Below, one piece after another: positions 1,649-63,905 of a stretch of DNA of 64,000 bases (position 1 is the first letter of the stretch; each line of letters starts with the position of its first letter). The DNA comes from a candidate division FCPU426 bacterium. Lineage in GTDB: Bacteria; Oederibacteriota; Muellerivitia; Muellerivitales; Muellerivitaceae. Position numbers and translations under genes: made by a program. The notes beneath the pieces were generated by a model. That model searched no databases. It was not told the DNA's origin and saw nothing but the letters and a program-made list of their open reading frames with translations. Where the stretch lies: NCBI GenBank assembly GCA_963796105.1, contig CAWCKJ010000004.1, positions 768,001 through 832,000 on the forward strand, given 5' to 3'.

Positions 1649-2280
1649 GGCCTATGCGTCAAGGTTTCAAGCCGAGATGCGCTCCTGGTGTGCCGGGCCA
1701 CAAAAACCCCGGCCGCTTAATTGGTGTTTTTGAATTCCAAAATTTGGTTATTGTCGACACTCGACACGTAGAGGTTGCCCGAACCGTCCAAGGCAAGACC
1801 CACGGGGCCCTGAAAATAATTGTTTCCAAAAGTCACTCCGGCGGTATAGGTGGTCCCGGAGGACGCGGGGTTGAATTCCTGGATATAACCAGGTAACGCG
1901 CACTGGGACACCAGCACGTTCCCGGCGCTGTCCACGGCGATGCCAATCGGCAGGGTTAAGCCGGAAGCGCGAAAGGAAACCGGGCTCCCGCCGGCCGGGC
2001 CGTACTTGACGGCATCCGACGTCGCCCCACCGGTCAAATTCGCCACATAAACATTGTTGTTTGAATCCAGTGCCAGATATTCCGGGATATCCAAGACGCC
2101 CGCGCCTGAACTGGTGGAGCTGAAGGCGCCGATATAAGTAAAGGTTTTTGGGGTCGTGGTATTGTCGATGGAATAAACCAAAATCGCCGGCGTCGCGGTT
2201 GTTTCCGTGACATAAAGGGTTGTGCCGGCCGAATTGACCGCCACGCCTTCGACTTTCAATGCCTCTCCAAACGGTACCTG

Positions 2281-2308
2281 TTGAAATAAAGGAATACAGG
2301 AGTATACT
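2281..2308 (+). promoter_or_regulatory. Putative sigma70 promoter of the IS transposase
   Basis: TTGAAA-N16-TATACT; the same arrangement is conserved in the divergent IS at 61947-61974. Confidence 0.6.
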
Positions 2309-2328
2309 CATTGTTGGAGGGGCAAATT

Positions 2329-3240
2329 ATGAACTACCAACGGATGAAGGGGATTGAGATTTTCAAGGAAATCGATACAGAAGAAAAGGCACGTCAATGG
2401 GTGTGGAAGAGCCGTTTTGCCGGAAAAGACTTTGTTTGCCCACAATGTGAAGGAGAAAGTTTCTGGCAACACAAAAACCGCCCCGAAGTGCGGGAATGTG
2501 ACTATTGTCGAAAGCAAATACGGCTTCGAGCCGGAACGATCTTCCGGAAATCCAAGATCCCAATCTTAACCTGGTTGAGGATGATTGGATTGGTGATGCA
2601 AGGGAAAAGGGGCATTTCAGCCCTGGAACTTCAGCGGCAATTGGGAATGCCCTCCTACGATACCGTTTGGAGGATGTTGCATAAGATTCGGGAAAGTCTT
2701 CGACAAAGGGATGAAAATTACCAACTCAAGGAAATCATTGAGTTGGATGGGGCTGTATTCGGCAAGAGAGAAAAGGAAAACCAGGCTGAAGTGCTGGTGG
2801 CGGTTGAAAGCAAAGAATGGATAGATGAGAAAGGGCGCAAAAAAGAGAAAGCGGGTTTTGCAAAGATAAAGGTGACCGCAGAAACCAAGTGGGAAGCCCA
2901 AGCATTCGTCGATCAAGCAATCCAGAAAGGCGCCATGATAAACACGGATGCCAGTCCCAGCTTGAGAAACTTGGAAAACGTGGATGTGGAGTACCAGGTA
3001 ACAGCCAATGACCCAGTGGTGTTAAATCACTGGTTACCTTGGGTCCACCGATTCATTTCCAACGCCAAGGCTTGGATCCTAGGAACCCATCATGGAGTCA
3101 ACGTGAAATATCTGCCTGGATACTTGAGCGAATATACTTATCGGTTCAATCGTCGCCATGACCCAGATTCCTTATTTCACCGGGCCTTAACCGCTTGCGC
3201 TTTGGCAAAACCCATTACTGCGCAAGCGTTGTTCGGATAG
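2329..3240 (+). CDS. IS1595-family transposase
   Basis: Zn ribbon CPQC...CDYC, then GTIF, GISALEL, IELDG, NTD and HHGV...YLSEYxYRFNRR. ATG 2329 follows GGAGG; the ORF track starts at 2311. Confidence 0.95.
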   Translation: MNYQRMKGIEIFKEIDTEEKARQWVWKSRFAGKDFVCPQCEGESFWQHKNRPEVRECDYCRKQIRLRAGTIFRKSKIPILTWLRMIGLVMQGKRGISALELQRQLGMPSYDTVWRMLHKIRESLRQRDENYQLKEIIELDGAVFGKREKENQAEVLVAVESKEWIDEKGRKKEKAGFAKIKVTAETKWEAQAFVDQAIQKGAMINTDASPSLRNLENVDVEYQVTANDPVVLNHWLPWVHRFISNAKAWILGTHHGVNVKYLPGYLSEYTYRFNRRHDPDSLFHRALTACALAKPITAQALFG

Positions 3241-3975
3241 GCATGCGACTTTCGTTAGGCCCGTGATGACGGTTTGGTAGGCCCCGGTGGAGGAAAATAC
3301 TTCGATCTGGCCGTTTCCCCAGTCCCCTAAGTAGATCGTTCCATCAGGGCCGATATTCGCCTGGGTCAGGCCGTCAAAAGTAGCGGAACCGTTATAGGCG
3401 GAAATGGTCGTCACCGATAGGCCTGACGTGGTGAATTCCTCTAAATCCCCAGCCGTCGTGTAAGTATTAACGATCCATAAGTGGCCGTTATAGTAACTAA
3501 TGCTCCGGGGGGAAAAAGTACTCGGCCCTGAAATCACCGTCACCGCCGTGGTGGAATAAGCCGGCGTTGAGGCGGGCTTCGCCGGGGAAGCGGGACTATT
3601 GTTGGAACTGCAGGAAGCGCTCAGGACGGCTGTTGCCGCGAGGATTAAGATGAAACACCAAATGGATTTATCGCGAATACCGGGCATAGGAGACCTCCAT
3701 GGATTTTTTTAAATCCGGAAGGTTTAATAGCAACCTTTCAGAAGTCTCCCCAGATAAGAAACAACGGCTTTATCCTATCCCCGGCATACATATCGGTCAA
3801 CATAGTGTTCACTAGGAAACGATGAAATCAATCGGGCGACCCAAAATCTTCCACTAGGTACTGCCGGATTTATGCCCGGTTTCAGGGTTCCCAGCCAGTT
3901 CCCGGGACAATCAGTCCGTGCCGGCGAAAAACCTTTTTTCCCTTTAGATGTTCGCAAGCCGGTTGGCTGAATGGG

Positions 3976-12748: not shown

Positions 12749-13150
12749 CTATTTCAAATATTCATCCAGGCCAACCGTCAACTGGGGCACCGCTTTCCTC
12801 AAGGCCTTATCGCAGGTCACGCACACCATTCCCAGGGTTTTAGCCAGCGCCACGAACAAGGCGTCATAACCGCTGATTTTGTGCCTCAAAGCCAGGTCCA
12901 AGGCCTGGTCACCCTCCACGGGTTCCTCCCGCAAATGGGATAACTGGAACGAGGCTTTCCAAACGGCCCTGATATCTTCCGCCGGCATTTTTTGGTGCCG
13001 GGAGTAATTCACGAGGATGTTCAGGAACTCGATGCGCCAAAAGGAAGGAACAACCCAATCCCGTTCGCGGTCCAGGAGCGCCATGGCCTTCGGGGTATTC
13101 TCGCCCTTGATGAGCAGGTAAGCGATGATGTTCGTGTCTACGGCGATCAA
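12749..13150 (-). CDS. vapC: VapC/PIN-domain toxin
   Basis: IAVDTN, EFLN, YDALFVALA and VTCD PIN motifs; a probable TTG start overlaps the antitoxin stop. Confidence 0.9.
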   Translation of the reverse strand: MIAVDTNIIAYLLIKGENTPKAMALLDRERDWVVPSFWRIEFLNILVNYSRHQKMPAEDIRAVWKASFQLSHLREEPVEGDQALDLALRHKISGYDALFVALAKTLGMVCVTCDKALRKAVPQLTVGLDEYLK

Positions 13151-13377
13151 GCCATTCCCTTGCGCTTCCATTGGTGGATCAACTTTTCGGTGAGGGGCTT
13201 CTTGCCCTCATAAGGCGCTGGAAGCTCGCCCGCGTAAAAACGGCCCTGGTTCCCGCTTAAACCCGCCTCCAAGAGATAGATCGCCTCCCCGTTCATGGAC
13301 CTATGGGCTTTTTGGGCCTCTTCCTTCAAGCGCCGGTGAAGCTCATCCGGCAGGTCCTTAATCACCAAAGTCGCCAT
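13147..13377 (-). CDS. FitA/Arc-like ribbon-helix-helix antitoxin
   Basis: MATLVIKDLPDELHRRLKEEAQKAHRSMNGE is a typical RHH N-terminus; lies immediately upstream of vapC. Confidence 0.88.
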   Translation of the reverse strand: MATLVIKDLPDELHRRLKEEAQKAHRSMNGEAIYLLEAGLSGNQGRFYAGELPAPYEGKKPLTEKLIHQWKRKGMA

Positions 13378-13404
13378 GGAAACCCCCGAGGTTGAGTTGA
13401 CTAC

Positions 13405-13425
13405 CATTATGGAATCATTATGGAA
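13405..13425. promoter_or_regulatory. Probable TA autoregulatory operator
   Basis: CATTATGGAA repeated at 13405-13414 and 13416-13425, just downstream of a minus-strand TTGACA (13432-13437) and upstream of the antitoxin. Confidence 0.5.
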
Positions 13426-13635
13426 GTTTTTTGTCAAGGCTCAAACAGCGCCCGGCGAATCGCCATGGTTTTTCCAGTCAAAGGACGGCCCTCCGCACCG
13501 CAGCGTAGGGCAGGGCTTCAGGCCGCCAGTTTGTTGCGGGTCCTGGCCCATCCTCCTCTGTGGAACCCATTTCTCACCGCGTCCCTGGCGCTTCCAATAG
13601 TCACGGGCCCGGACCAGCTAAAGGGATGGGTCCGC

Positions 13636-13792
13636 CAACATTTAACGCCTGCCTTGAGGCCGCTAACTCGGCCTTCAACCTGAAAATATCCGCGTCGAGC
13701 CGGGCCAGGACCACGTTCCTGAATTTCCCGAAATGAAGGTAAAGGGCCATGAGGGATATGGCGCTGTTCAGGGCCCTGGGATACCTGAAGAG
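13636..13792 (-). repeat. Duplicated 3' end of the radical SAM gene (left direct repeat)
   Basis: 13667-13792 matches 19989-20114 (126 bp, mismatches only at 13678 and 13783). Degenerate similarity extends to CAACATTTAAC at 13636 versus 19951. Confidence 0.95.
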
Positions 13793-13913
13793 GGAGATGA
13801 AATATCCAACATTTCCCATGGTTTTATTGGGGTTAATTGATAACCCTGGATAGTTGATTAGTGGTAGTATTTATCATCTGTTGTTTGACCAGAATATGAG
13901 GTGCATATTTTTT

Positions 13914-16900
13914 ATGAAGCGAACCTGGTTCCTAAAAGCCCTTTGCCTTCTTTTATTCGCCACGCCTTCATTCGTCTCCGCCCAATCCGAAGATACTGAC
14001 ACGCCCACTTATACTTCCACTGATATCTGGACCGACACACCTACTGATGTTCCGGTTTTCACAGCGACGGATACTCCTGCCGACACGCCCACGGCTTTGC
14101 CGACTTTCACCCCGTCGGATGTTCCCACCGCCACACCCACCTTTACCTATACCTCCACCTACTACCCGACAAACACATTCACCTGGTCCCCGACACCGCT
14201 TCCTTACGGGACGAACTATTTCGGCAACAACTTCCCGTTGGACGGGAACTACAGCGATTACCCGATGACGGACCCGTCGTACCAGGGTAGCGTCCGGTTC
14301 ACGGCGAGGAATAGCGGCGCGGTATCCATCGCGTGGGTGTACTTTAGCCAGGATTCGGGCGGGCAGTACGTGGCGCAGTTCGAGGGGGATAATGCGGGAG
14401 TACCTGATGGCAACACGCTGGGAAACCCGGCGACCTTCTCCTCCGCCAATGCCGGGTGGTCCGGCGTGACGTTCACCGGCAATCCACCCAATTTGACGGC
14501 CGGGACTGTGTACCATATGGTATTGTCGGGAACCTCGAACGACGGGCCCGCCACCTACTGCACATGGCGGTTGGGGACCACGCCCTATAACGGGATGTAC
14601 CCCTACGACCAGTCCTCCGACCCCAACCAGGGGGCCGCGAAAAACCTGGGGACCGGCTGGACAGCCCTGGGCGGCGTCCAACCCCTATTCTTTCTCCAAT
14701 TCGGCAACAATTTTCTCGACGGCAACCTAAATGATTTGCAAGTGGATGAAATGGTTTACGGGAATAACCAGGAATCGGAGATGTTCGTCCTCAACGGGGT
14801 TCCCGTGACCATTACCTCCGTGGGCGCTTTCGTGAAAGAAATCGGTTCACCCTCCGAAAGCCTGACTTGGGCCATAAAAGACGGGAACGTGAACATTAAC
14901 ATCGCGACCGGAATCCTCGCCATGCCTTCTCAAGTGGGTCCGGGATACCAGTGGGTGGAAACGAACCTCCCCACTCCCTTGGTATTATCCCCGGATAATT
15001 ACATTTTCGCTTTAAACTCCAGCGGGTCCTCAAATTCCTCAAATTGCTATAGCTGGAGCCTGGGCGGATGTGAATCTCTTGGGTTTAAATACTTGCTCGC
15101 TGGGACGTATGAGGGGTACCTGGCGTCTGGGGCCTACTCAATAGACGGCGGTTCCACTTGGAATCACTTCCAAAACCCATACGTCAACAGTTTCCCTTTC
15201 CGGTTCCTGCAAAGCCCCGCGGGTACACCGACCCCGACCCCAACGCCGACTCCGCCCGGGACAAGCTACGTGGGGAACCAATCGGTCGTTTCCAGCCCCA
15301 ACGATCTGGTTTTAGACGACTTCAGTATCCGGGGAAGCTTGAGGTTCACGTCCAGGATCAACGGCCCAGTGACGGGCGTTGATTTATATATCGACTGGAC
15401 TTACGCGGGCCCCTTTTACAGAATCGGGATCCAGGGCGATAACAACGGCATACCCAACGGGACTTATCTCTCCGCGCCGGTCACGCAATCCATTACGAAG
15501 GTTGGCTGGCAGACATTCGCCCTGGGCCCGGGCGTAACCCTTTCCTCCGGCAATATATACCACGTTGTTCTTGAAACGGTTCATTACGGGGATTTTATGG
15601 GCGGCTCGGTCCTATGGAGGCAAGCTACCGCGCCGGCGGCGCAGCTATATCCATCGGGCCAGCAATCCGACCCGAACATGGGTATCGCGCAGGATTTAGG
15701 GAAAGGATGGGCCTTCGTCCCGGGTTACCAGCCGATTTTCGCCCTCAGGATCTCAAGCGGCCCGATGGACGGCAACCCCTATATTGCCTCGAATGATTGG
15801 AATATCCTCGGCACCGTCCAATTAGGCGAACGGTTCCTGGTCAACGGCCTCCCGGTCACGGTCAGCACCGCCGGCGCTTATGTGAGGAAATACGGAAACC
15901 CAAGCGGGAATCTGAACTGGGCCATTCAAGTTTTCACTTCGGGGATGACGGTCACCACCGCGTCAGGCACCCTTGCCGCTCCCAGCCAGGTCGGAACGAA
16001 CTATCAATGGGTGGAGGCGCCCATACCCTCGACCCGTTTAGCTCCGGGGATATACAGGTTCGTCCTTTCCTCGCCCGGGTCCACGACCCAAGGGAACGGG
16101 TATCAATGGAGCATGGCTTACTCGAATTTTGCCAGTCCGAGCCCATATGCGAACATCACTTACGGCAAGGACATGGCCTTCGGGGAGGAATCAAACGACG
16201 GGGGATCCACCTGGAGCGGCCTGGATATCTCCCCATACTATGGCAATGATTTTTGCTTCAGGATGTTAACCGACCCCAACGCCACTCCGGTCCCCACGTC
16301 CACCCCCACCCCCACGGGTTTCCTTGCCATCGGCAACCAATCGGTGTATTCCTCGGTCAACAACCTCGTGCTAGGCGACCCCGGAACGCGGGGAAGCCTT
16401 CGATTCACGGCCCGGCAAAGCGCCCCGGTGTCGGGCGTATGCCTGTATATCGACCACTCCATAGGTACCCCTCAATATAAATTCGGCCTGCAAGGGGACA
16501 ATAACGGGTTTCCCGCCGGGACTTATTTATCGGGCCCCGCGACCCTGGCGTTTAATAATTACGGCAACGGATGGGTGACATTGGGGGTGAACCCAAGCGT
16601 GAACCTGGCCGCCGGGACGGTTTACCACGTCGTCGCGGAACCAGTGAGCGTGAACGGGACCAACTATGCCGTTTGGGAGCAATCCACCGTCCCCGGCACA
16701 AAGTTATATCCATTGGGCCAGCAGGCCGACGCGAACATGGGGATTGACCAGGACATGGGGAATGGCTGGAATTTTGTCCCGGGTTACCAACCGGTTTTTG
16801 TCCTGTTGAACGGCGCGGGTCCTTTCGACGGCAATCCTTATATATTCGGTTTTAACATGGATATATACGGGTCGAACGAATATTCGCAGAGGTTCACCCC

Positions 16901-19900
16901 TTCCTCCTCCTACGTGATAAACGCGGTCGGGGCCTACGTCACCAAAACGGGCAATCCGGCAGGGGACTTAAAATGGGAAATCAGGAGCCTTCCCGGTACA
17001 TTGATCGCCTCGGGAACTTTGGCCACCGCCTCCCAGGTCGGGACGAAGCTGCAATGGGTGGAAACCGGAATCACCCCGGTATCTTTACCAGCCCAGCAGG
17101 CGTGCCGTTTTATCCTTTCCTCCCCCGGATCAGCGTCAGGCAATGATTACCAATGGACGATGAACGGCACACAATCCTCTTGTTGCGCGAATTTCGGGAA
17201 TATCACTTACGATGGGACAAATTCCTTCGGCGAATCCTCCGCCAACAGCGGTTCCAGCTGGGTTTCAATATCCACCCTGGGAGATTGCGATTTTGGTTTC
17301 CGGGTCTGGTCGAACGGGTCCACCCCGACCTTAACCCCGACGGCCACCGCCACCAATACCCCCACTAAAACAAGCACCAATACCTTAACGAATACCGCGA
17401 CAAAAACCCCGACTAAAACCAGCACGCCCACCGTAACGGCCACCCCAACTCCCACCCCCACCGTTACCTTTACAAGCACCCCTTCCTATACTTCAACCCC
17501 CACGCAGACTTGCAACCCATCTATCGTCGGCTCCTGCTGGTACGAGTCCACCGCGAACGCGGCTTTCAGCGCCAGGGCCGGTAATGGTTGCGTGGTATTC
17601 GACCCAAGCACAGGAAACCCCGCGGGCAAAATGTGGGTCATCGCCGGGCAGACCTCGCCCTCGGCATTCTTGAACGACGTTTATTACAGCCCCGACGGGG
17701 CCAACTGGACCCAGGCCACGGCCAGCGCGGCCTTCTCCCAAAGGACGAGGCCCAGCGCCTTGGTTTTTGATCCCGTCACTAAAAATCAATCGAAACGGAT
17801 TTGGGTCATCGGCGGTTTGGACACTTCCTCAACTTGTCTCAACGACGTCTGGTGGTCTCCCAACGGGGTCAACTGGTTGCAGGCTACCTCCCACGCGGGC
17901 TTCACCGGCAGGTGGGGCATGAGCACCGCGGTCTATAATCCAACCGACGGCACGGCTACTGGAAAAATGTGGGTCATCGGCGGATATACGTCGAGCGGTT
18001 TCGCCAACGACGTTTGGTATTCCGCCGACGGGGTCAACTGGACCCTGGCCACTTCAAATCCACCCTTTGATGGAAGGTTCGGGGCGTCGGCCCTGGTCTT
18101 TGGCGGGAAATTGTGGGTTATCAGCGGGAGTGCCGTGACCAACGGCGTCTGGTGCACCACGGACGGGGTCCATTGGACTACGGCCACCTCCTCCCCCGCC
18201 TTTGGGTACAAATACGGCAACGCCGGTTATGTTTACAACGGCGCCATGTGGGTGGTCTCGGGCACCTCCTCAGGAAGCATCAACACCAACGACGTGTGGG
18301 CCTCCACGGATGGCGCCAACTGGACCCAGGTTAATTCCTCCGCGCCCTTCCCTGCCCGTCAAGTGACAAACGGCGTGGTGTTCGACGCCGGTACCGGCCT
18401 TTCCATGTGGCTGATCGGCGGCGCCGGGAACAGTTACTTTAACGATGTCTGGCACACGGTCGGCCTGCCGCCGACCGCCACTCCGACCTTTACAGTAACG
18501 CCGACGAATTCGCCGACTTCAACCCCCACCGTTACCTTTACGATGACCCCCACCTCCACCGCAACCTCGACAGGGACGGCCACCAATACACCCACTGCCA
18601 CGCCGACTGACACGGCTACAAGCACTCCAACTTCAAGCGATACAACTACGGATACGCCCACCTTTTCTCCGACCGATACGGCGACATTTACGGATACTTG
18701 CACGCCTTCCTACACCTCGACCAGCACACCCACCGATACGCCTACTTACACACCCACGAATACTCCGACTGATACCCCTACACCTACCAACACGACCACT
18801 GATACGCCAACCAATACCCCAACAAACACGCCTACGGATTCGCCTACGCCGTCGCCGACCAACACCCCGACCGATACTCCCACTAGCACCCCCACACCGA
18901 CACTTACAGACACCCTTACCCCAACCTATACGCCGTCCTCCACGCCTACCAGTACCTCAACTCCTACTGACACATCAACGGACACACCGACGGATTCGGC
19001 TACGGCAACGCCTACACCCACCAATACACCCACCAGCACTCTCACGCCAACCTTCACCAATACCCTTATCCCAACCTATACGCCGTCATTCACGCCTACC
19101 AATAAGTTTACGACAACGCCTACTCCCACCAACACACCTTCCAGTACACCAACGCCAGCCTCTACCAACACCCTTACCCCAACTTATACGCCGTCATTTA
19201 CACCTACCAACACGGCTACGCCAACGCCTACGCCCACCTATACGTTTACGAATACCCCCACGAATACTCCTACCAAAACCTACACATTCACAGCCACTTT
19301 TACTTATACGTACACATCCACCAATACCCCTACGAAAACGATTACAAACACGTACACAAAGACTTATACGCCGACTAACACCGGTACCCCGACAAAAACC
19401 CCGACTATTACCAATACATTCACGAAGACATTAATCCCTACCATAACGCGTTCCCCAACCGCCACATCCACGCCGACGAAAACCCTCACCCGTACCCCAA
19501 CACCCACCATCACCCGGACACCGACCAAGACGTTTACCGGAACGCCGACAAAAACACCTACCCGCACGAATACCCCCGCGGGTAAATCGATGAAAGACTT
19601 TGAACGGGAAACCCCGACCCCCACCCGACCGGCTGCATTATTGGTCATCGCGGCTCCAAGCATTTCCCGGAACGGGGAACCCATCCGATTCCGGATGGAG
19701 TTGGACCGGACGGTCGGGATCAAGCTGGGCCTTTACTCCCTGGATGGGGAAGAGGTCTTCCGGTCCTCGGTTGTGGGGAAGCCGGGTGAAAACATTTTGA
19801 CCTGGAATATTCAAAACACGGCCGGAAACCCAGTGGCCAGCGGCTTGTACGTGGCGGTCGTGCGGGTGGAGGACGGCGCTGGATCAAGAAAAAAGACTGT

Positions 19901-19922
19901 GAAAGTCGTGGTTTTGCGCTAA
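13914..19922 (+). CDS. Giant (~2000 aa) secreted modular protein: three ~340-aa repeats, a Kelch-like propeller, Thr/Pro linkers and a FlgD/T9SS-like C-terminal domain
   Basis: Signal peptide [23 protein letters not shown]; three GSxRFTxR...GDNxGxP...SQVGxxxQWVE repeats; NDVWxSxDGxNW repeats; C-terminal LYSLDGEEV...WN..N..G..VASGLY...KVVVLR. The ORF track starts at 13854. Confidence 0.88.
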
Positions 19923-19949
19923 TAAGCTGGTTCGAAAATCCCCATTAAT

Positions 19950-21554
19950 TCAACATTTAACAACTGCCTTGATGGAGGCTAATTCCGCCTCGGCCTTCAG
20001 CCTGAAAATATCCGCGTCGAGCCGGGCCAGGACCACGTTCCTGAATTTCCCGAAATGAAGGTAAAGGGCCATGAGGGATATGGCGCTGTTCAGGGCCCTG
20101 GGATTCCTGAAGAGTGTGGAGAGGATGACCTTCACGTAATGGTAGGCGGCTACGGGGTTGAATCCGAACTTGACGGAAAGGTTGAGCAAGGCCCTCATTT
20201 CCTTGATCTTCCTGAGGAAAGGCGTGCGGAACTGGTGGTTGGAACGGTTCAATTCCAGGGCCATGCGCTGGATGCGCCCGAAATATTTCCCCGCCGAGAA
20301 TGTTTCCTTAATAACCCTGCGGAAATCCTTCAGGATCTCGAACTTCGGCCTCAAGGTGGTGAAATTAAGCCCCGTCGTGCATTGGCAGGTGGCGTTGGCG
20401 GCGGGGACATCGAAAGTTTCGTCCAACCGGCCTTCCCGGCGCAGGCGGCGGGTCATTTGGGTGTTGGGCAGGGCGTACAAAAGGCCCACCATGCTCACGG
20501 GGATGTTGGTGTCCTCGATATTGTCCAGGAGGGCCTGGGCCACGCTTCCCTTCTCGCCGTCGAACCCCACGATATAGCCCGCGTGCACGACCATCCCGTG
20601 CTGGTTGATCCGCTGGACGCTTTCCGCGATGGACCTTCGGGTGTTCTGGCCCTTCTGGGTGGCTTTGAGCGTCTCCTCATTCGGCGTCTCGATGCCCGTG
20701 AAAACCCAGCTGAAGCCCGCTTCCTTCATCAGGTCCATGAGGGGCGAATCGTCGGAAAGGTTCAGGGAGGCCTCGGTGGAAAGGTCGAAGGGATGGCGGT
20801 GCTCCCTCTGCCATTGGATGATGGAAGGCAGGAGTTCCTTGACGGCTTTCTTGTTTCCGATGAAATTATCGTCCACGATCTCCACGTGCCCCCGGTAGCC
20901 CAGGTCGTAGATCTTCTGGAGCTCCAAAAGCACCTGTCCGGGGCTCTTGCCTCTGGGCACCCGGCCGAAAAGCTCGATGATGTCGCAGAACTCGCACAGG
21001 AAGGGACAACCCCGGTTCCATTGGATGGCCACATGGAGGTATTTCTTGAGTTTCAGGAGCTCGAACCTCGGGGCGGGGCTTTTCGTCATATCGGCCTTGC
21101 GCCCTCCCGCCTCATAGAGGTGCCTGGGCTTGCCCCTTTGGAAATCCTCCAAGAACTCCGGGAAGGTGATTTCCGCCTCCCCCAGGACTAGATGGTCGGC
21201 CCGGTCGTAAACGTGTGGGCTGGAGCTGGGGTCGGGTCCCCCCACGATGACCTTTTTCTTGAGGGCCTTGAAAAAGCCGATCAAGCGCAGGTGGTCCGGC
21301 TGTTGGAAGATCATGCCGCTGATGAAAACCGTGTCCGCCCAGGCCACATCCCGGGCCTTGAGCTTTTCCACGTTCAAGTCGATGAGCTTGACCCGCCAGG
21401 CGGGGGGAAACATGGCGGCCACCGTGATGAGGCCCAGGGGGGCGGTGGGGTACTTGGCCCCCATCAGCTCGCAGGCTTCCTTATAGTTCCAGAAGGACTG
21501 GGCGGTGAACTTGGGATAGATGAGCAAACAACGGTTAACTTGGTTTTCCAGCAT
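19950..21554 (-). CDS. B12-binding domain radical SAM protein (DUF4070 type)
   Basis: PLGLITVA and VGGP B12-binding motifs; RGCPFLCEFC cluster motif; VDDNFIG and GIET. ATG 21554 follows GGAGG. Confidence 0.92.
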   Translation of the reverse strand: MLENQVNRCLLIYPKFTAQSFWNYKEACELMGAKYPTAPLGLITVAAMFPPAWRVKLIDLNVEKLKARDVAWADTVFISGMIFQQPDHLRLIGFFKALKKKVIVGGPDPSSSPHVYDRADHLVLGEAEITFPEFLEDFQRGKPRHLYEAGGRKADMTKSPAPRFELLKLKKYLHVAIQWNRGCPFLCEFCDIIELFGRVPRGKSPGQVLLELQKIYDLGYRGHVEIVDDNFIGNKKAVKELLPSIIQWQREHRHPFDLSTEASLNLSDDSPLMDLMKEAGFSWVFTGIETPNEETLKATQKGQNTRRSIAESVQRINQHGMVVHAGYIVGFDGEKGSVAQALLDNIEDTNIPVSMVGLLYALPNTQMTRRLRREGRLDETFDVPAANATCQCTTGLNFTTLRPKFEILKDFRRVIKETFSAGKYFGRIQRMALELNRSNHQFRTPFLRKIKEMRALLNLSVKFGFNPVAAYHYVKVILSTLFRNPRALNSAISLMALYLHFGKFRNVVLARLDADIFRLKAEAELASIKAVVKC

Positions 21555-37107: not shown

Positions 37108-40100
37108 ATGAATCTCCCAAAATTGGCAATTGACCGGCCCGTCTTCATGAGCTGCGTGGTCATCATGATCATGGTGCTGGGCATCATGGGCTACCTGTCC
37201 TTGGGCGTGGACCTGTTCCCGGACGTCAGCTTCCCCTTCGTGTTCGTGACGGTCCCCTACCAGGGGGCCTCGCCTGAGGAAATCGAGACGCAAATCTCCA
37301 AGCCCATGGAGGACGAGCTCAGCTCCCTTCAGGGCGTAAAAAAAGTCTCCTCCTCCAATCAGGAGGGGTTCGCCGTCATCTGGGTGCAGTTCACCCTGGA
37401 GACCGACGCCAAGGACGCCGAGCAGCAGGTGCGCGACCGGGTGGCCTTCGTGCGGCCCCAATTGCCCAAAGGCATCGATGAGCCCATCATCCGGCGGTTC
37501 GACCCCACGGACCAAGCGGTGGCCATCCTGAGCCTCCAGGCCCCTGGGCTTTCCCCCGCCGACACCTACGACCTGGCCGACCAGTACATCAAACCCCGCC
37601 TCGCGGAGGTGCCGGGGGTGGGCGTGGTCAACATCGTGGGGGGCCACAAAAGGGAGATTCAGGTCCAGTTGGACCGAGGCCAGCTCAACCGATACCGCCT
37701 CAGCGCGGGCCAGGTGGCGGACAGGATCGGCTTGAACGGCATGAACGTGCCCGTGGGCAAGGTTGACCTGGGGCCCCAGGAGCTTCTTTTCAGGTCCGTC
37801 GGCGAGTACAACGACTTGGAGCGCATCAAGCGGACCCCCGTCAACTTTTTCGGTTCCGACGTGTCGGTAACGGTGGATAAATTGGGCCGGGTGATAGACA
37901 CGGTGGCGGACCCCGACAGCTACAGTTTCCTCAACGGCCAGCCCACCCTGGTCTTGCAAGTTTACAAACAGTCCAAGGCAAATACCGTGGCGGTGGTGGA
38001 CGGGGCCTTGAAGCAGATGGATAAGATCAACAAGTACCTCAAGACGAAATCGGGCTCCCCCGAGCTTTCCGTGATCCAGGAAATGGCGCGACCCGTCCGG
38101 ATGAACCTCACGGACGTCAAGTTCACCATCCTCCAGGGCATCCTCCTGACCATCCTGGTGGTCCTTCTGTTTCTCGGAAGTTTCCGCTCCACCTTGATCA
38201 CCATCACCTCCCTCCCGGTTTCACTATTGGGAGCCTTCTTCCTCATGAACAGCCAGGGTTACACCCTGAATGTCATGACGCTTTTGGCCTTGTCGCTCGC
38301 GGTGGGACTTTTGATCGACGACGCCATCGTGGTCCGGGAAAACATCTGGCGGCACATCGAGGAGGGGATGGAGCCTAAAAAAGCCGCCGTGGACGGGGCG
38401 CTGGAAGTGGCCCTGGCGGTCGTGGCGACCTCCTCGGTCATCATCGCGGTTTTCATGCCGATTGCTTTCCTCCACGGGATCGTGGGGCAATTTTTCCGGG
38501 AATTCGGCTTGACGGTCTGTTTCGCAATGGGCATCTCTCTCTTCGAGGCCATGGTCATGGGGCCCTTGCTCTCGGCCTATTGGGCGAGGAAAACCACCAA
38601 GGACGAGAAGGAATTACCCGTGATTGGCCCCATCCTCAAAGCTTTCAGCCGGTTCCAGGATTTCCTGGAGTCTAAATACGCGGTCCTTATCGATTGGTGC
38701 CTGAGGAACCGCAAAAAAGTGATCGGGACCGCAGTATTTCTTTTCTTTTTCGCCCTGCTGGGTTTGGGCCCCCGCATAAAGTTCACATTCCTGCCAACAG
38801 CTGATGTGGGGGAATTCGTGGTCCTTTTAAAGGGCGCTCCCGGAACCTCCCTGGAGGCGATGAAATCCATGACGGGCGAAGTCTCCGCCGTCATCCAGAA
38901 ACACCCGGAAGTGGTGGTTATGTCCGGATCCATCGGAGGGAGCGACGCCGCTGGCGCGGCCCAGGGCGTGAACAAGGCCCGTATCTATATCCGCCTCAAA
39001 TCCTACAAGGACCGCGATATCACCACGTCCGAAATGATGGCCCAGGTCCGAAAGGAACTGGAGCCCTTCCGGGAGAAACTGAAACCCCAGGTGGCAGAGG
39101 CCAGCGCCTTTGGGGACCAGGCGCCCTTCAACTTGAACCTGGTGGGGGATGATTACTCCACCTTGGTCCCCTTCGCCGAACAAATCGCGGAAAAATTCCG
39201 GGGCTTGAAGGACCTGGCCGACGTCCAATCCACCTATGACGGGGGCAAGCCCGAGTTCCAGGCGGTCTTGGACTCGGAGCGCATGAAGGTCCTCGGGGTC
39301 TCGGGCGTGGAAGCGGGGATGGAACTTCGCACCCAGGTGGAGGGTTTGGTGGCGGCTAAATTGCGCCAGCATGGCCAGGACTATGACATCCGCGTCAGGC
39401 TCCAGGAAAGCCAGAGGAACCTGGAAAAGGAATACGAAAATATCCTGGTCCCCAACCAGAACCACAACATGATCCATTTGTCCGACGTGTCCCGCCCCGT
39501 CACGACCGAGGGACCGGCCCGTATCGACCGGCAGGACCGGGCTCGCTACATCATGGTCTCGGCCCAGATCGCACCGGGAGGCGCCCTGGGTAACGCCATC
39601 GACAAGGCCAAGGCAGCCATGAAGGACATCCAACTGCCCCCCGGCGTGACCTATGAGTTCGTGGGCCAGGCCCAGGACCTCCAGGACCTCGTGGTCAGTA
39701 TGCTGGAGGCCGTGGGCTTGGCGGTTCTTTTCACTTTCATGATCCTCGCCAGCCTTTACGAATCGCCCATCATCCCCTTCACCATCATGCTGGCCATCCC
39801 CCTGGCCATCGTGGGGGCTTTCCTCGCGCTCTTCCTCGGGCAGATGATCGTCCCCACCCTGAGCCTGAATATTTTCAGCATGGTGGCCCTCATCATGCTT
39901 CTGGGACTCGTCACCAAGAATTCCATCCTCCTGGTGGACTATACCCTCCAGATGATGCGAAAGGGCATGCCGCGCGACGAGGCCCTGAAAGCAGCCGGGA
40001 AAGTCCGTTTGCGTCCCATCCTGATGACCACCTTCGCCCTGATCGCCGGCATGCTTCCGGTGGCTTTGGCCCTGACCGAGGTGGGCAAGTTCCGGCAATC

Positions 40101-40254
40101 CATGGGCGTGGCCATCGAGGGCGGCTTGATCAGTTCGCTTCTTTTAACCCTCGTCATCGTGCCTTCGGTCTTCGGCTACGTGGATGATTTCCGCCTGTGG
40201 TTGACCAGGATATTCGAGTCGTTCAACGCGAAGCCCGGACTGGATAAGGACTAA
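37108..40254 (+). CDS. RND efflux permease (AcrB/AcrD/AcrF family), paralogue 1
   Basis: GASPEEIE, GLLIDDAIVVREN, GLVTKNSILL and RLRPILMTT. Confidence 0.96.
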   Translation: MNLPKLAIDRPVFMSCVVIMIMVLGIMGYLSLGVDLFPDVSFPFVFVTVPYQGASPEEIETQISKPMEDELSSLQGVKKVSSSNQEGFAVIWVQFTLETDAKDAEQQVRDRVAFVRPQLPKGIDEPIIRRFDPTDQAVAILSLQAPGLSPADTYDLADQYIKPRLAEVPGVGVVNIVGGHKREIQVQLDRGQLNRYRLSAGQVADRIGLNGMNVPVGKVDLGPQELLFRSVGEYNDLERIKRTPVNFFGSDVSVTVDKLGRVIDTVADPDSYSFLNGQPTLVLQVYKQSKANTVAVVDGALKQMDKINKYLKTKSGSPELSVIQEMARPVRMNLTDVKFTILQGILLTILVVLLFLGSFRSTLITITSLPVSLLGAFFLMNSQGYTLNVMTLLALSLAVGLLIDDAIVVRENIWRHIEEGMEPKKAAVDGALEVALAVVATSSVIIAVFMPIAFLHGIVGQFFREFGLTVCFAMGISLFEAMVMGPLLSAYWARKTTKDEKELPVIGPILKAFSRFQDFLESKYAVLIDWCLRNRKKVIGTAVFLFFFALLGLGPRIKFTFLPTADVGEFVVLLKGAPGTSLEAMKSMTGEVSAVIQKHPEVVVMSGSIGGSDAAGAAQGVNKARIYIRLKSYKDRDITTSEMMAQVRKELEPFREKLKPQVAEASAFGDQAPFNLNLVGDDYSTLVPFAEQIAEKFRGLKDLADVQSTYDGGKPEFQAVLDSERMKVLGVSGVEAGMELRTQVEGLVAAKLRQHGQDYDIRVRLQESQRNLEKEYENILVPNQNHNMIHLSDVSRPVTTEGPARIDRQDRARYIMVSAQIAPGGALGNAIDKAKAAMKDIQLPPGVTYEFVGQAQDLQDLVVSMLEAVGLAVLFTFMILASLYESPIIPFTIMLAIPLAIVGAFLALFLGQMIVPTLSLNIFSMVALIMLLGLVTKNSILLVDYTLQMMRKGMPRDEALKAAGKVRLRPILMTTFALIAGMLPVALALTEVGKFRQSMGVAIEGGLISSLLLTLVIVPSVFGYVDDFRLWLTRIFESFNAKPGLDKD

Positions 40255-40257
40255 ACT

Positions 40258-43200
40258 ATGAATCTTCCAAAATTAGCGGTCGAACGGCCGGTTTTCATGA
40301 GTTGCGTGGTCATCCTCCTCCTGGTGCTGGGTGTCATGGCCTACAGCACCATGGCGGTGGACCTTTTCCCCGATGTCAGCTTCCCCTTCGTCATCGTGAC
40401 CACGCCCTACCAGGGGGCCTCCCCCGAGGAAATCGAGACCCAGGTCTCCAAGCCCATGGAGGACGAGTTCAGCACCATCCAGGGCGTGAAGAAAGTGACC
40501 TCCAACAACCAGGAAGGCTACTCGGTGGTGATGGTCCAGTTCAACATGGACGCTGACGTGAAGGATTCCGAACAGCAGGTGAAGGACCACCTTTCCTTCG
40601 TGAGGACCACCCTGCCTAAGGACATCGACGAGCCGATCGTGCGGCGCCTGGATCCCAGCGCGCTTCCCGTGGCGCAGTTGAGCCTTTCCTCAACCCTTCC
40701 CCCCGCCCAGGCCTACGACTTGGCGGACCAGGTCATCAAGCCCCAATTGGCCCAGGTCGAGGGCGTGGGCGTCATCAATATCCAGGGAGGCCGCAAGCGG
40801 GAAATCCAGGTGCAGTTGGACCGCGGTTTGTTGAACCGTTTCCACATCAGCGCCTCCCAGGTAGCCACCCGCATCGGCATGAACGGCATGAACGTGCCCG
40901 TGGGCAAGGTGCAAGTAGCGGGCAGGGACCTCCTGTTCCGGTCGGTGGGCCAGTACGAGGACCTCGACCGCCTCCGCCAGACATCGGTTAATTTCATGGG
41001 GTCCGACGTTTCCGTGCCAGTGGAGCGCCTGGGCAAGGTGGTGGACACGGTGGAGGACGCTCAGGGTTACAGTTTTATCAACGGACAATCCGCCCTCATC
41101 ATCCAGATCGTGAAACAATCCAAGGCCAACACGGTCGCGGTGGTGGATGCCCTTACCAAGCGCATCTCCAAAATCAACGAGAGCCTCAAGGGCCGCCCCG
41201 GCTCACCGCGTTTGGATATGTTCCAAGACATGGCTTGGTACATCCGCATGAACCTGCAGGACGTCAAGTTCACCATCCTCCAGGGAATCCTTCTCACCAT
41301 CCTGGTGGTTTTCCTGTTCCTGGGAAGCTTCCGTTCGACCCTCATCACCATCACAGCCCTGCCAGTGTCGCTTTTCGGCGCTTTTTTCCTGATGAACGGC
41401 GTGGGTTTTACCTTGAACATGATGACCTTCCTGGCCTTGTCCTTGGCGGTGGGGCTTTTGATCGACGACGCCATCGTGGTGCGGGAAAACATCTGGAGGC
41501 ACATCGAGGAAGGGACGGAACCCAAGAAAGCCGCGGTGGAGGCCGCTTTGGAGGTCGCGCTGGCCGTCGTGGCAACCTCCTCCGTGGTTATCGCGGTTTT
41601 CATGCCCATTTCCTTCCTGAGCGGATTGGTAGGCCAGTTTTTCCGGCAGTTCGGCTTGACGGTTTGTTTCGCCATGAGCATTTCGCTTTTCGAGGCCATG
41701 GTCATGGGTCCCTTGCTTTCGGCTTTCTGGGGAAAGAAAAGGGGGAAAGGTTTCAGCTTGATCGACTATCTGGACCATCTTTTCGCTCCGTTTCTCGCCA
41801 AGTTCGGGCGGTTCCAGGATTTCCTTCAGGAAGTCTACTCGAAGGTGATCGACGCTTGCTTGAAACACCGTTTCCTCGTGATCCTGGGAGCGGTTTTGAT
41901 TTTCCTTTGCAGCCTGGGCCTTCTGCCCCTCATGAAAGTGACCTTCAAACCTTCCGCGGACGTGGGGCAGTTCGCGGTTTACCTGATGGCGGATCCGGCC
42001 ACCTCCCTGGAAACCATGCGGGACAAGACTTTGGAAATCGAAAAGTTGGTCCGCAAACATCCGGAGGTTGCGCTGGTGGCCGACAGCATCGGGGGTTCTA
42101 CCGCCACTGGAGCCGACCAGGGCTCCAACAAGTCGAACCTTTATATCCTGATGAAGCCGGCTGACCAGCGCCATATCGACACCGCCGGATTGAAGGAAAT
42201 CCTCCGCAAGGAATTGGAGCCTTATACCAAGGAATTGAGTCCCCAGGTGGCTGACTATGATCCCATCATGAACCAGGCTCCCTTCACCTTGAACCTGATC
42301 GGGGAGGACTACTCGGTTCTGGCGCCTTATGCTCTTCAAGTCGTGGAAAAGGTCAAGAGCATTCCCGGCCTGGCGGACGTGCAGTCCACCTTCAACGGCG
42401 GTAAGCCGGAGTTCCAGGCCAAACTGGACCCCGTCAAACTGAAAAACCTCGGGGTTTCCGGATTGGAAGCGGGAGGGGAACTCCGAACCCAGGTGGAAGG
42501 GGCCACCCCGGCCAAGTTCCGGCAGGGGGGATTGGATTACTTCATCCGGGTACGGCTCCAGGAGGACCAGAGGAACCTCCAAAAGGAATTCCCGAAGGTT
42601 CTGGTGCCCAACCAAAACGGCAACCTGGTCCGGCTTTCCGACATTGCCGACCCTGTCACCACCGAGGGTCCCTCCGAGATCGACCGTGAGAACCGGGCCC
42701 GGTATATCCAGATTACCGGCCAACTGACTCCGGGCGGAAGCCTGGGCAACGTCCTTCGGGACGGGAAGAAAATCCTGCAGAGCATGCAGATGCCCAAGGG
42801 AGTATCTTACGAGTTCGTGGGCCAAGCCGAAGATTTCCATGACCTGCTGGTCAACATGGCGATTGCCGTGGGACTGGCCATGCTCTTCACCTACATGATT
42901 CTCGCCAGCCTTTACGAGTCCCCCATCTTTCCATTTGCCATCATGCTGCCTATTCCTATGGCCATGATCGGGGCCTTGGCCGCCCTTTACGCGGGGGGCT
43001 TGTTCATTCCCTATGTGAACCTCAGCCTCTTCAGCATGATTGCCATCATTATGCTGATGGGCCTGGTCACGAAAAATTCCATCCTATTGATCGACTACAC
43101 CCTGCAAATGATGCGCAAGGGAATGCCCAGGGACGAGGCCCTCAAGGCAGCTGGCCGGGTGCGGCTCCGTCCCATCCTCATGACCACTTTCGCGCTGATC

Positions 43201-43443
43201 GCGGGCATGCTTCCGGTCGCGATGGCCCTGACCGAGATTGGAAAATTCCGGCAATCGATGGGGATCGCGATGGAAGGGGGCCTCATTAGTTCCTTGGTCT
43301 TGACGCTCATCATCATTCCCTCGAGTTTCGGCTACGTGGACGATTTCCGGTTGTGGATTCGCAGGATTTCAGGGGAGGAGGAGGACGATCTCGCGCCGAA
43401 ACCGGATCATCCAAGCGTAGTTTCAACAGACAAACCAGGATGA
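40258..43443 (+). CDS. RND efflux permease (AcrB/AcrD/AcrF family), paralogue 2
   Basis: Same motifs as paralogue 1, with long near-identical stretches. Confidence 0.96.
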   Translation: MNLPKLAVERPVFMSCVVILLLVLGVMAYSTMAVDLFPDVSFPFVIVTTPYQGASPEEIETQVSKPMEDEFSTIQGVKKVTSNNQEGYSVVMVQFNMDADVKDSEQQVKDHLSFVRTTLPKDIDEPIVRRLDPSALPVAQLSLSSTLPPAQAYDLADQVIKPQLAQVEGVGVINIQGGRKREIQVQLDRGLLNRFHISASQVATRIGMNGMNVPVGKVQVAGRDLLFRSVGQYEDLDRLRQTSVNFMGSDVSVPVERLGKVVDTVEDAQGYSFINGQSALIIQIVKQSKANTVAVVDALTKRISKINESLKGRPGSPRLDMFQDMAWYIRMNLQDVKFTILQGILLTILVVFLFLGSFRSTLITITALPVSLFGAFFLMNGVGFTLNMMTFLALSLAVGLLIDDAIVVRENIWRHIEEGTEPKKAAVEAALEVALAVVATSSVVIAVFMPISFLSGLVGQFFRQFGLTVCFAMSISLFEAMVMGPLLSAFWGKKRGKGFSLIDYLDHLFAPFLAKFGRFQDFLQEVYSKVIDACLKHRFLVILGAVLIFLCSLGLLPLMKVTFKPSADVGQFAVYLMADPATSLETMRDKTLEIEKLVRKHPEVALVADSIGGSTATGADQGSNKSNLYILMKPADQRHIDTAGLKEILRKELEPYTKELSPQVADYDPIMNQAPFTLNLIGEDYSVLAPYALQVVEKVKSIPGLADVQSTFNGGKPEFQAKLDPVKLKNLGVSGLEAGGELRTQVEGATPAKFRQGGLDYFIRVRLQEDQRNLQKEFPKVLVPNQNGNLVRLSDIADPVTTEGPSEIDRENRARYIQITGQLTPGGSLGNVLRDGKKILQSMQMPKGVSYEFVGQAEDFHDLLVNMAIAVGLAMLFTYMILASLYESPIFPFAIMLPIPMAMIGALAALYAGGLFIPYVNLSLFSMIAIIMLMGLVTKNSILLIDYTLQMMRKGMPRDEALKAAGRVRLRPILMTTFALIAGMLPVAMALTEIGKFRQSMGIAMEGGLISSLVLTLIIIPSSFGYVDDFRLWIRRISGEEEDDLAPKPDHPSVVSTDKPG

Positions 43444-61923: not shown

Positions 61924-62909
61924 CATGCTTCTGTATTAAGTGACCCTTGAAATAAAGGAATACATAGGTATACTGTCCGCTACGGGAGGTGGTACATGAG
62001 CTACCAGCGGATGAAAAGCATTAAAATTCTGAGGAAAATCCACACGGAAGAAGAAGCCCGCCAATGGGTGTGGAGATGCCGTTTCGGCGGGAAAGACTTT
62101 GTTTGTCCCCAATGTGAGGGCGAAAGCTTCTGGCAACACCAGGCCAAGCCTGAAGTGAGGGAATGTGACTATTGCCGGAAACGTCTTCGGCTTCGCGCCG
62201 GGACGATTTTTGAAAGCTCCAAGCTGCCTCTTTTAACCTGGGTCAGGGCCATCAGTTTGATGATGCAGGGCAAACGGGGTATTTCGGCCCTGGAACTGAA
62301 GCGGCATTTAAATCTTTCGGATCATTCGGCATGGCTTCTATTGCATAAGATCCGGGAAGGTCTTAGGCAAAAGGACGAAAGCTATACTCTAAAGGGCGTC
62401 ATTGAGTTGGATGGGGCGGTTTTTGGGAAAAAGGCCAAGGAAAACCAAGTGGAAGTCTTGGTGGCGGTGGAAAGCAAGGAATGGGTGGATGAGAATGGTT
62501 GCAAGAAGGAAAAAGCGGGTTTTGCCAAGGTGAAGGTAGCTATGGAAACCAAGTGGGAGAGCCAGGAATTCGTGAATCAGACTATGGAAAAAGGCTCTTT
62601 CCTCAACACAGATGCTTCGCCAGCCTTGCGTGAACTCAAAGGAGTGGAGGCAGACTACCGGGTGATGGCCAATGACCCGAAAGAGTTGGAAAGTTGGTTG
62701 CCCTGGGTACACCGGTTCATTTCCAACGCCAAGGCCTGGATCATTGGAACTCATCATGGCGTTGATGCTAAGTATTTAGGCCGGTATCTAAGTGAATATG
62801 CCTATCGGTTCAACCGTCGTCATGATCCCGATTCCTTATTTCACCGTGCTTTGACCGCATGTGCCTTAGCAAAACCCATTACAGCACGGTCACTTTGTGC
62901 ATAAGCATA
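61924..62909 (+). mobile_element. IS1595-family insertion sequence B (986 bp)
   Basis: IRs CATGCTTCTGTATTAAGTGACC / GGTCACTTTGTGCATAAGCATA; flanked by AAAAATTA at 61916-61923 and 62910-62917. Confidence 0.92.
61996..62904 (+). CDS. IS1595-family transposase (divergent homologue of A)
   Basis: Same Zn ribbon and IELDG/NTD/YLSEY motifs; RBS GGAGG. Confidence 0.95.
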   Translation: MSYQRMKSIKILRKIHTEEEARQWVWRCRFGGKDFVCPQCEGESFWQHQAKPEVRECDYCRKRLRLRAGTIFESSKLPLLTWVRAISLMMQGKRGISALELKRHLNLSDHSAWLLLHKIREGLRQKDESYTLKGVIELDGAVFGKKAKENQVEVLVAVESKEWVDENGCKKEKAGFAKVKVAMETKWESQEFVNQTMEKGSFLNTDASPALRELKGVEADYRVMANDPKELESWLPWVHRFISNAKAWIIGTHHGVDAKYLGRYLSEYAYRFNRRHDPDSLFHRALTACALAKPITARSLCA

Positions 62910-62917
62910 AAAAATTA

Positions 62918-63905
62918 CATGCCTATCCGAACAACGCTTGCGCAGTAATGGGTTTTGCCAAAGCGCAAGCGGTTAAGGCCCGGTGAAATAAGGAATCTGG
63001 GTCATGGCGACGATTGAACCGATAAGTATATTCGCTCAAGTATCCAGGCAGATATTTCACGTTGACTCCATGATGGGTTCCTAGGATCCAAGCCTTGGCG
63101 TTGGAAATGAATCGGTGGACCCAAGGTAACCAGTGATTTAACACCACTGGGTCATTGGCTGTTACCTGGTACTCCACATCCACGTTTTCCAAGTTTCTCA
63201 AGCTGGGACTGGCATCCGTGTTTATCATGGCGCCTTTCTGGATTGCTTGATCGACGAATGCTTGGGCTTCCCACTTGGTTTCTGCGGTCACCTTTATCTT
63301 TGCAAAACCCGCTTTCTCTTTTTTGCGCCCTTTCTCATCTATCCATTCTTTGCTTTCAACCGCCACCAGCACTTCAGCCTGGTTTTCCTTTTCTCTCTTG
63401 CCGAATACAGCCCCATCCAACTCAATGATTTCCTTGAGTTGGTAATTTTCATCCCTTTGTCGAAGACTTTCCCGAATCTTATGCAACATCCTCCAAACGG
63501 TATCGTAGGAGGGCATTCCCAATTGCCGCTGAAGTTCCAGGGCTGAAATGCCCCTTTTCCCTTGCATCACCAATCCAATCATCCTCAACCAGGTTAAGAT
63601 TGGGATCTTGGATTTCCGGAAGATCGTTCCGGCTCGAAGCCGTATTTGCTTTCGACAATAGTCACATTCCCGCACTTCGGGGCGGTTTTTGTGTTGCCAG
63701 AAACTTTCTCCTTCACATTGTGGGCAAACAAAGTCTTTTCCGGCAAAACGGCTCTTCCACACCCATTGACGTGCCTTTTCTTCTGTATCGATTTCCTTGA
63801 AAATCTCAATCCCCTTCATCCGTTGGTAGTTCATAATTTGCCCCTCCAACAATGAGTATACTCCTGTATTCCTTTATTTCAACAGGTACCGTTTGGAGAG
63901 GCATT
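62918..63905 (-). mobile_element. IS1595-family insertion sequence, copy A2 (988 bp)
   Basis: Reverse complement of 2258-3245 with an identical transposase; TSD AAAAATTA at 62910-62917 and 63906-63913. Confidence 0.95.
62923..63834 (-). CDS. IS1595-family transposase (identical to copy A1)
   Basis: Translation identical to that of 2329-3240. Confidence 0.95.
   Translation of the reverse strand: MNYQRMKGIEIFKEIDTEEKARQWVWKSRFAGKDFVCPQCEGESFWQHKNRPEVRECDYCRKQIRLRAGTIFRKSKIPILTWLRMIGLVMQGKRGISALELQRQLGMPSYDTVWRMLHKIRESLRQRDENYQLKEIIELDGAVFGKREKENQAEVLVAVESKEWIDEKGRKKEKAGFAKIKVTAETKWEAQAFVDQAIQKGAMINTDASPSLRNLENVDVEYQVTANDPVVLNHWLPWVHRFISNAKAWILGTHHGVNVKYLPGYLSEYTYRFNRRHDPDSLFHRALTACALAKPITAQALFG

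Follow-up and report, generated by a model that had tools for sequence, protein, structure and literature searches.

Integrative islands and prophages such as e14, an integrase-encoding prophage in icd that restores the 3′ end of this protein-coding gene, duplicate a gene end downstream and leave the gene intact. Here, we describe a locus with the same layout in a candidate division FCPU426 bacterium (assembly GCA_963796105.1). In a 64,000-nucleotide stretch of contig CAWCKJ010000004.1 (positions 768,001 to 832,000; this whole stretch is the window, and its coordinates are used unless a contig is named), a gene encoding a giant secreted protein lies between two copies of the 3′ end of a radical SAM gene. 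Unlike integrase-borne elements such as e14, the arrangement has no integrase and no fixed core, and it recurs at many unrelated targets. We consider it rather probable (roughly 0.7) that the giant gene came to lie between the two radical SAM ends on a fragment from a close relative, through a single homologous crossover and with no integrase.

The closest described class is the 'insertion with long target duplication' of Furuta, Abe and Kobayashi (2010, PMC2853133). In the portions of that report considered here, the inserts are shorter than 20 kb and lack mobile-element genes, the direct repeats exceed 30 bp and span stop codons, the target stays intact, insertion into operons is noted, and the hosts are mostly naturally competent. 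The structural features among these are shared by the locus described here or its sister loci. In contrast, that class was screened on restriction-modification cargo, the only cargo described in those portions, its repeats are near-identical in part of its table (43/46 to 47/47), and DNA breakage driven by the cargo was proposed; here, the insert carries the gene of a secreted Thr/Pro-rich protein (elsewhere toxin-antitoxin pairs and ATPases), the survey is genome-wide, and the copies are diverged alleles. The structure itself is a variant of 'insertion with long target duplication', and the new elements are the count of cases across the genome and the allele test presented below; we found no earlier genome-wide count of cases other than restriction-modification, nor a silent-difference test, in the literature searched, which covered few subscription papers.

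A laboratory system in E. coli resembles the entry step that we propose (PMC3240628). In the part of that study drawn on here, trimmed DNA was recircularised and entered by a single crossover, leaving duplications of 109-950 bp in 56/60 clones, with one-sided illegitimate events in 4. Circularisation with single crossover, or homology-facilitated illegitimate recombination, shares with our locus the one-sided homology, the arbitrary second end and the locus duplication. RecA-dependent entry is established for that laboratory plasmid, at about 6e-9 per recipient, whereas we infer both RecA and natural chromosomal fragments from scars. The unconventional circularizable structures (PMC8401462) and the H47 island (PMC5426353), as far as the consulted portions go, likewise lack a recombinase and have extensive imperfect flanking direct repeats; they are recurring elements whose circle excision was shown by polymerase chain reaction, whereas the inserts described here differ at each site and are known from genome sequence alone. 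Additive transfer through flanking homology is discussed in part of PMC11375855, duplications made by transformation in part of PMC3784515, and the first step of such gene entry is modelled as mediated by a mobile element in part of PMC13617665 (2026).

The genome under study (G000) comprises 4.98 Mb in 16 contigs, with 0.32% contamination, and the locus lies on a 1.6-Mb contig (C4). Its features are as follows.

12749-13407, minus strand: FitA/VapBC-type toxin-antitoxin pair (PIN and FitA-like ribbon-helix-helix), downstream of the displaced copy
13470-13531, no strand assigned: short dispersed repeat between the displaced copy and vapBC, with five more genome copies (84-98%)
13601-13666, minus strand: tail of the displaced radical SAM end, likely resident, whose frame stays open as far as the stop at 13601, with a 23-residue Pro-rich C-terminus (open reading frame 13601-13819)
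13667-13792, minus strand: left repeat, an orphan duplicate of codons ~481-522 of the radical SAM gene, 124/126 identical to 19989-20114
13793-13913, plus strand: AT-rich 121-bp region 5′ of the giant gene, a putative promoter region, with no other genome copy
13914-19922, plus strand: giant secreted protein gene (2002 amino acids) with signal peptide, three ~345-residue units, Kelch-like propeller, Thr/Pro stalk and FlgD/T9SS-like tail
19950-21554, minus strand: target gene, B12-binding radical SAM / DUF4070, 534 amino acids
19951-19988, minus strand: end of the intact gene, likely supplied by the donor, running 14 residues past the RLK motif, with a one-base offset relative to the displaced tail
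19989-20114, minus strand: right repeat, within the intact target gene, matching the left repeat

The two copies of the 126-bp direct repeat are offset by 6322 bp, and their two mismatches (13678/20000 and 13783/20105) enclose a perfect core of 104 bp. A degenerate extension crosses the stop region (13636-13666 / 19951-19988; 31 aligned bases with 4 substitutions, plus gaps of 6 nt and 1 nt), and BLASTN aligns the whole repeat pair over 164 columns (92%, E 4e-61). The sequence comparison bears out the preliminary description of this region, which had reported the repeat, its offset, its two mismatches and its extension, with the giant gene as the sole gene between the copies; an alternative upstream TTG start would lengthen the product to 2022 amino acids. 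The 4.98-Mb genome has no third copy of the repeat (BLASTN) and no second copy of the cargo. The radical SAM gene is intact, 90% identical to its orthologue in the relative G001, and convergent with the giant gene, with 27 bp separating their stops. The left repeat forms a unique junction at 13792/13793, and no match to the sigma-70 consensus was found on the plus strand of 13793-13913. With a unit of 6322 bp and a repeat above 30 bp, the insert agrees in both structural dimensions with 'insertion with long target duplication'. Short dispersed repeats occupy 13470-13637, directly past the orphan tail, with copies on four contigs; we take the one at 13470-13531 to be of the REP (repetitive extragenic palindromic) type.

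The orphan copy continues past a conserved RLK motif for 23 Pro-rich residues and then stops. The corresponding tails are 23 and 25 residues long in the orthologues of G001 and G011, and 14 residues long in the intact gene. A crossover within the 104-bp core would cleanly yield an open radical SAM gene for 543 amino acids beside vapBC. Because the orphan tail is orthologue-like in length and the core crossover restores an open gene, we read the orphan as probably the resident end, the present gene end having arrived with the insert. These two features also support the earlier proposal of an insertion that duplicated and restored the radical SAM 3′ end; most likely, RecA-type recombination both duplicated and replaced it.

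The same final structure would result from one-sided recombination of the reverse polarity, if the chromosome had already contained the radical SAM and giant genes together and a donor fragment, beginning within the donor's own radical SAM gene, had brought the orphan tail with the genes on the vapBC side; the foreign copy would then be the orphan. The vapBC pair, with a 91% identical copy in a different context in G001, is itself a mobile-type module, and a three-way comparison with G001 assigns neither copy to the gene body (1 vs 1 sites at radical SAM, 10 vs 10 at recG). We nevertheless regard this polarity as unlikely, given the orthologue-like tail of the orphan here and given that, at the ABC (ATP-binding cassette) and recG loci described below, the ancestral neighbour is still linked to the orphan, and relatives are without the insert.

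The arrangement is not confined to this gene. From 4109 gene calls made with a simple in-house model, a strict scan considered genes of at least 100 amino acids and unique partial copies of 35-600 bp with identity of at least 85%. For 3′ ends, 13 copies lay downstream in direct orientation, 0.3-6.2 kb away; 2 lay upstream in direct and 1 in inverted orientation, and 9 were far away. The downstream bias among direct copies (13 vs 2) has P=0.004. The 5′ ends gave 6 upstream, 3 downstream and 6 far copies. For mid-gene pieces, 26 copies were far away and 2 inverted, and the direct ones were split evenly, with 1 downstream and 1 upstream. Several 5′-upstream copies are paralogous lipoprotein starts, and the 5′ class was not used as support. 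A relaxed local scan of 2633 genes produced 278 raw matches, of which 32 were kept after removal of multi-copy pieces and of matches inside longer same-strand genes: 18 3′-downstream (16 genes), 3 3′-upstream, 7 5′-upstream, 1 5′-downstream and 3 mid-gene.

The targets are unrelated and include recG, tatD, a major facilitator superfamily (MFS) gene, an ABC ATPase, a periplasmic binding protein, glycoside hydrolases similar to GH42 and GH44, and rsmI. Their inserts lack an integrase and carry VapBC, HicA, HigBA, HEPN/nucleotidyltransferase genes, DUF4143 ATPases, secreted proteins or no called gene. Repeat lengths range from 33 to 448 bp, the junctions are arbitrary, and no common junction motif was found, with nothing shared beyond 15 bp among the 13 strict repeats; the mismatches overall show no clustering towards one repeat end (62 vs 72). 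Two targets, rsmI and the gene at C3:813571, have two stacked copies each. At C8:76713-80711, rsmI is followed by two stacked inserts, encoding a Schlafen/AlbA_2 protein and a YhcG/DUF1016 nuclease, each ending in an orphan rsmI tail. At C7:104870-108288, the final 117 bp of a gene for a 1094-residue secreted protein are repeated at 99% identity 18 bp upstream of its called start.

This diversity bears on how the insert was moved. If the repeat were the attL/attR pair of a site-specific element moved by an integrase acting in trans, the enzyme could be among the 36 tyrosine-recombinase and 2 resolvase-family matches in the genome, and the part of the H47 report considered here (PMC5426353) shows that islands with long imperfect repeats but no recombinase are able to excise and integrate. 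However, no recombinase lies in or beside the insert, in agreement with the preliminary description: the closest tyrosine-recombinase match is 341 kb off, one resolvase-family match is at 259 kb on C4 (about 520 kb off), and the other is on contig C6. Moreover, 13-16 unrelated targets share no site, and a single G001 target shows different junctions. Of the two routes offered earlier, RecA or an integrase in trans, we therefore retain the RecA-type route and consider the second highly improbable. Nor is the notion of a dedicated single-gene mobile cassette supported, since the same layout, with its variable repeats, occurs at all these genes.

The differences between gene ends and their copies are mostly silent. 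Under a decay model in which the orphan drifts neutrally and the gene changes silently, 38% of the differences are expected to be silent. The 13 strict pairs show 83 synonymous and 35 non-synonymous differences, that is, a silent share of 70% (P=5e-13), with proportions of synonymous (pS) and non-synonymous (pN) differences of 0.19 and 0.024 and pN/pS of 0.13. Additional copies, hand-picked out of the scans, gave synonymous/non-synonymous counts of 55/40 for five copies in G000 (P 2e-5), 66/53 for eight in G001 (P 1e-5) and 32/26 for five in G002 (P 1e-3). The two copies thus behave as working alleles, donor and resident, rather than as a gene and its decaying local duplicate. At recG, the MFS gene and livK, pS between copies is 0.34-0.42, and pS between either copy and another species (G001) is 0.18-0.38. 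Because the copy-to-copy divergence matches the divergence from G001, some donors at these genes would have been other species.

Relatives were compared at five sister loci, and an empty site was found for two. At the ABC locus (C4:1300594-1303163), an ATPase/permease operon is interrupted by vapBC and a 55-bp orphan ATPase end; the ATPase and permease genes abut in G002, G011 and G022 (3/4 genomes), and G001 has no operon match. At C3:600849-606367, recG and the next gene, of the MFS type, are each followed by an orphan copy of their 3′ end (189 and 75 bp), and the two genes abut in G001, one of the four relatives. G001 matches the DNA past the orphan recG end and not the DNA past the intact end. 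At these two loci, the insert-bearing state is derived. For the radical SAM gene, the neighbours in G001, G002 and G011 are unrelated, with neither the giant gene nor vapBC adjoining. The adjacency to vapBC, which the preliminary description had singled out for checking, was thus not found; equally absent was the giant gene at this site without the repeat, the layout that it had linked to simple local duplication.

Scans of the relatives gave the same orientation. For G001, 860 kb or about a fifth of the genome was covered: the strict scan found 2 downstream and 0 upstream copies, and the relaxed scan 10 downstream and 1 upstream, with 4/10 downstream copies set aside as tails of tandem or paralogous genes. 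The relaxed scan of 800 kb of G002 found 5 downstream and 1 upstream. A control of 155 loci near distant homologues (2.09 Mb, 1283 genes), which is rough and biased, gave 3 downstream and 4 upstream copies; without filtering, 110 pieces taken at random from G000 (2.37 Mb, 1411 genes) gave 18 and 6. We consider it likely that the same process acted at 13-16 genes of G000 and in the two relatives.

In G001, three units of ~2.9 kb that are 90-91% identical follow a GH67 gene (C27:23339-34345). Each unit consists of a converging membrane glycosyltransferase gene and a GH67 tail copy, the latter being 142, 54 or 224 bp long. Because their junctions differ, these units appear to be separate captures of the same neighbour, that is, accretion and not amplification. 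Further left of the units, a membrane-protein gene is present in triplicate. At C13:101852-108740 of G001, an Endonuclease III-type gene is accompanied by two orphan tails around three genes for secreted or outer-membrane proteins (195, 542 and 1005 amino acids).

Based on these observations, we propose the following course for the radical SAM locus. In the donor, the giant gene would have been the next gene after the radical SAM gene. Breakage at no particular position within the radical SAM gene on one side, and about 120 bp before the start of the giant gene on the other, would have released a fragment, whose free ends would have been joined, either to each other as a circle or illegitimately to the chromosome. 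RecA would then have paired the shared tail, and one crossover would have placed the donor tail on the gene and displaced the resident tail downstream. As the observed pattern shows, the events that persist are gene-end events that leave the gene intact. The 104-bp perfect core is predicted to permit occasional clean deletion or unequal exchange, resulting in one-way loss or amplification and not in a programmed switch. The genome has recA, comEC and dprA, which permit transformation and are not proof of it.

Several points weigh against this course of events. Circle-first entry and one-sided illegitimate joining give an identical product and are indistinguishable, so either route fits. comEC and dprA are widespread (10/14 and 11/14 controls) and are no proof of competence. 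A search of 13 genomes found no Ku, which leaves the end-joining step without a named enzyme. The four relatives showed no clean empty site at tatD, livK or rsmI, and G001, G002 and G011 showed none at the radical SAM locus. The donor allele of this locus was not found in the relatives, metagenome stretches or genome contigs searched: a degenerate core pattern matched 0 metagenome stretches, radical SAM queries returned distant homologues only (best 62% in metagenomes, 62-71% in genomes), and a giant-protein domain query of genome contigs returned 14 candidate stretches with no relative among them. The pair at this locus, with 3 silent and 3 amino-acid differences over 157 bp, cannot be judged alone. 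Its two copies are closer to each other in the core (2/126) than in the tail (4/31 plus two gaps; P=0.014), so that later homogenisation or a mosaic donor is needed. Additionally, balanced pairs exist (tatD 3/6, G002 metH-like 2/8), and 5′-end copies fail the allele test (21/24, P=0.18).

The high core identity with tail gaps and the balanced sister pairs would fit a recent local copy, made within the lineage by tandem duplication followed by deletion, or by break repair that copied the gene end, with the orphan decaying since. However, the cargo has no second copy, the pooled differences are strongly silent, and the copies at recG, the MFS gene and livK are as divergent as sequences of different species; we find this origin distinctly unlikely. 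The junction of two strain haplotypes at the repeat during assembly is barely plausible. The assembly is of the metagenome type and no spanning reads document the junctions, but the locus lies inside its large contig in a genome of few contigs and little contamination, the copies differ at their edges and tails, and two relatives, each assembled independently, show the pattern as well. Of the sampled words, 6% occurred in two DNA runs from a single study, which may stem from the campaign that yielded the genome, and no RNA run was listed. Contigs from these shallow runs matched parts of the giant gene and its flanks exactly at a depth of 2-4.5, covering neither repeat and showing no 6322-bp joint, and are uninformative on excision.

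The preliminary description had also suggested on/off variation of the surface protein by looping out or amplification. A selected, reversible switch of expression or copy number through the repeat could exploit the perfect core, which would allow in-frame excision, and the G001 tandem array indicates that multi-unit states exist. Against such a switch, which we judge very unlikely, the same scar flanks toxin-antitoxin pairs, ATPases and gene-less inserts and is not tailored to surface proteins, the units and junctions of the G001 array are non-identical, hence accretion, and the unit has no replication or recombinase gene. A circle of promoter plus gene with no origin would be lost and not toggled. 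No empty site, excision junction or circle was seen for this locus, so the suggested on/off variation is unsupported, and single-crossover capture continues to be our preferred account of the locus.

The entry of toxin-antitoxin pairs, defence ATPases and large surface genes without an attached mobile element is poorly explained. The scar can be read out from one genome: a downstream gene-end copy with mostly silent differences points to additive capture from a relative and provides an estimate of donor distance. In this way, 'insertion with long target duplication' becomes a process that can be counted across genomes, beyond a restriction-modification curiosity. More tentatively, the additive capture of neighbours of shared genes through one-sided gene-end homology may be a routine and major route of gene gain in this family (about 3-6 scars per Mb, stacked at some genes). 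It could move toxin-antitoxin pairs and 6-kb adhesin genes between species with no mobile element, perhaps through a dedicated uptake-linked non-Ku end joining, and the orphan tails would keep dated resident or donor alleles; we regard this wider proposal as a real but tentative possibility.

The cargo encodes a protein with a hydrophobic N-terminus, in which the following further features were located.

15267-16310, plus strand: second of the three ~345-residue units, predicted as two jelly-roll/lectin-like beta-sandwiches
17526-18458, plus strand: Kelch-like repeat region (repeat family D12), with weak Kelch Pfam matches; 10 genome proteins match, including the giant protein
18470-19580, plus strand: Thr/Pro-rich stalk, 60-80% Thr+Pro+Ser
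19611-19922, plus strand: C-terminal FlgD/T9SS-like tail, with weak matches to type IX secretion system (T9SS) families; 19 genome proteins match, including the giant protein

The three units are 38-49% identical to each other. An AlphaFold2 model of the ~345-residue unit, based on a 74-sequence alignment, consists of two beta-sandwiches with a predicted local distance difference test score (pLDDT) of 94; single-sequence prediction reached a pLDDT of only 39. The model resembles jelly-roll/lectin-like domains with Z 11-14 (best Z 14.0, root-mean-square deviation 2.9, 146 aligned; Cwp84 lectin-like domain Z 11.0). DUF4082 matched 42/74 aligned members of the unit family, a sequence search of the PDB gave no real match, and the Atlas matches were clusters without names plus one lectin-like family. 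The unit has 235 relatives at E<=0.001; in this family of 235 proteins, it is fused to many surface-protein heads and tails, and the DUF4082 and Lectin_like matches are weak. The T9SS-family matches of the tail (E 3e-4 and 2e-3) are far under the family cut-offs. The giant protein is likely a glycan-binding surface adhesin, as judged from the predicted folds.

Taken singly, the giant-gene locus is unremarkable in this organism: 45 Thr/Pro-rich genome proteins, the cargo included, have a similar tail motif, six of them being of at least 2000 amino acids, and the cargo's G+C content at third codon positions (0.68 vs a genome median of 0.66) is native. The closest giant homologue in G001 is located elsewhere, amid insertion sequence (IS) and toxin-antitoxin genes, on a contig that begins within the gene (C3:1-6137). 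This homologue has several near-identical tandem ~345-residue units, which would reflect recent intragenic amplification, and a different propeller. In G000, arrays of giant Thr/Pro-rich genes at C11:5382-33984 and C13:17452-35931 contain multi-kilobase blocks that are 86-99.9% identical, which suggests active gene conversion or amplification.

Elsewhere in the window, two identical IS1595-family copies (2254-3252 and 62911-63909) are inverted and 59.7 kb apart, and a related element (72-76%) at about 61947-62904 is head-on to the second copy. At 37147-43443, two tandem paralogous genes encode ~1050-residue proteins, with DNA blocks 66-80% identical, which we take to be similar to AcrB of the resistance-nodulation-division (RND) type.

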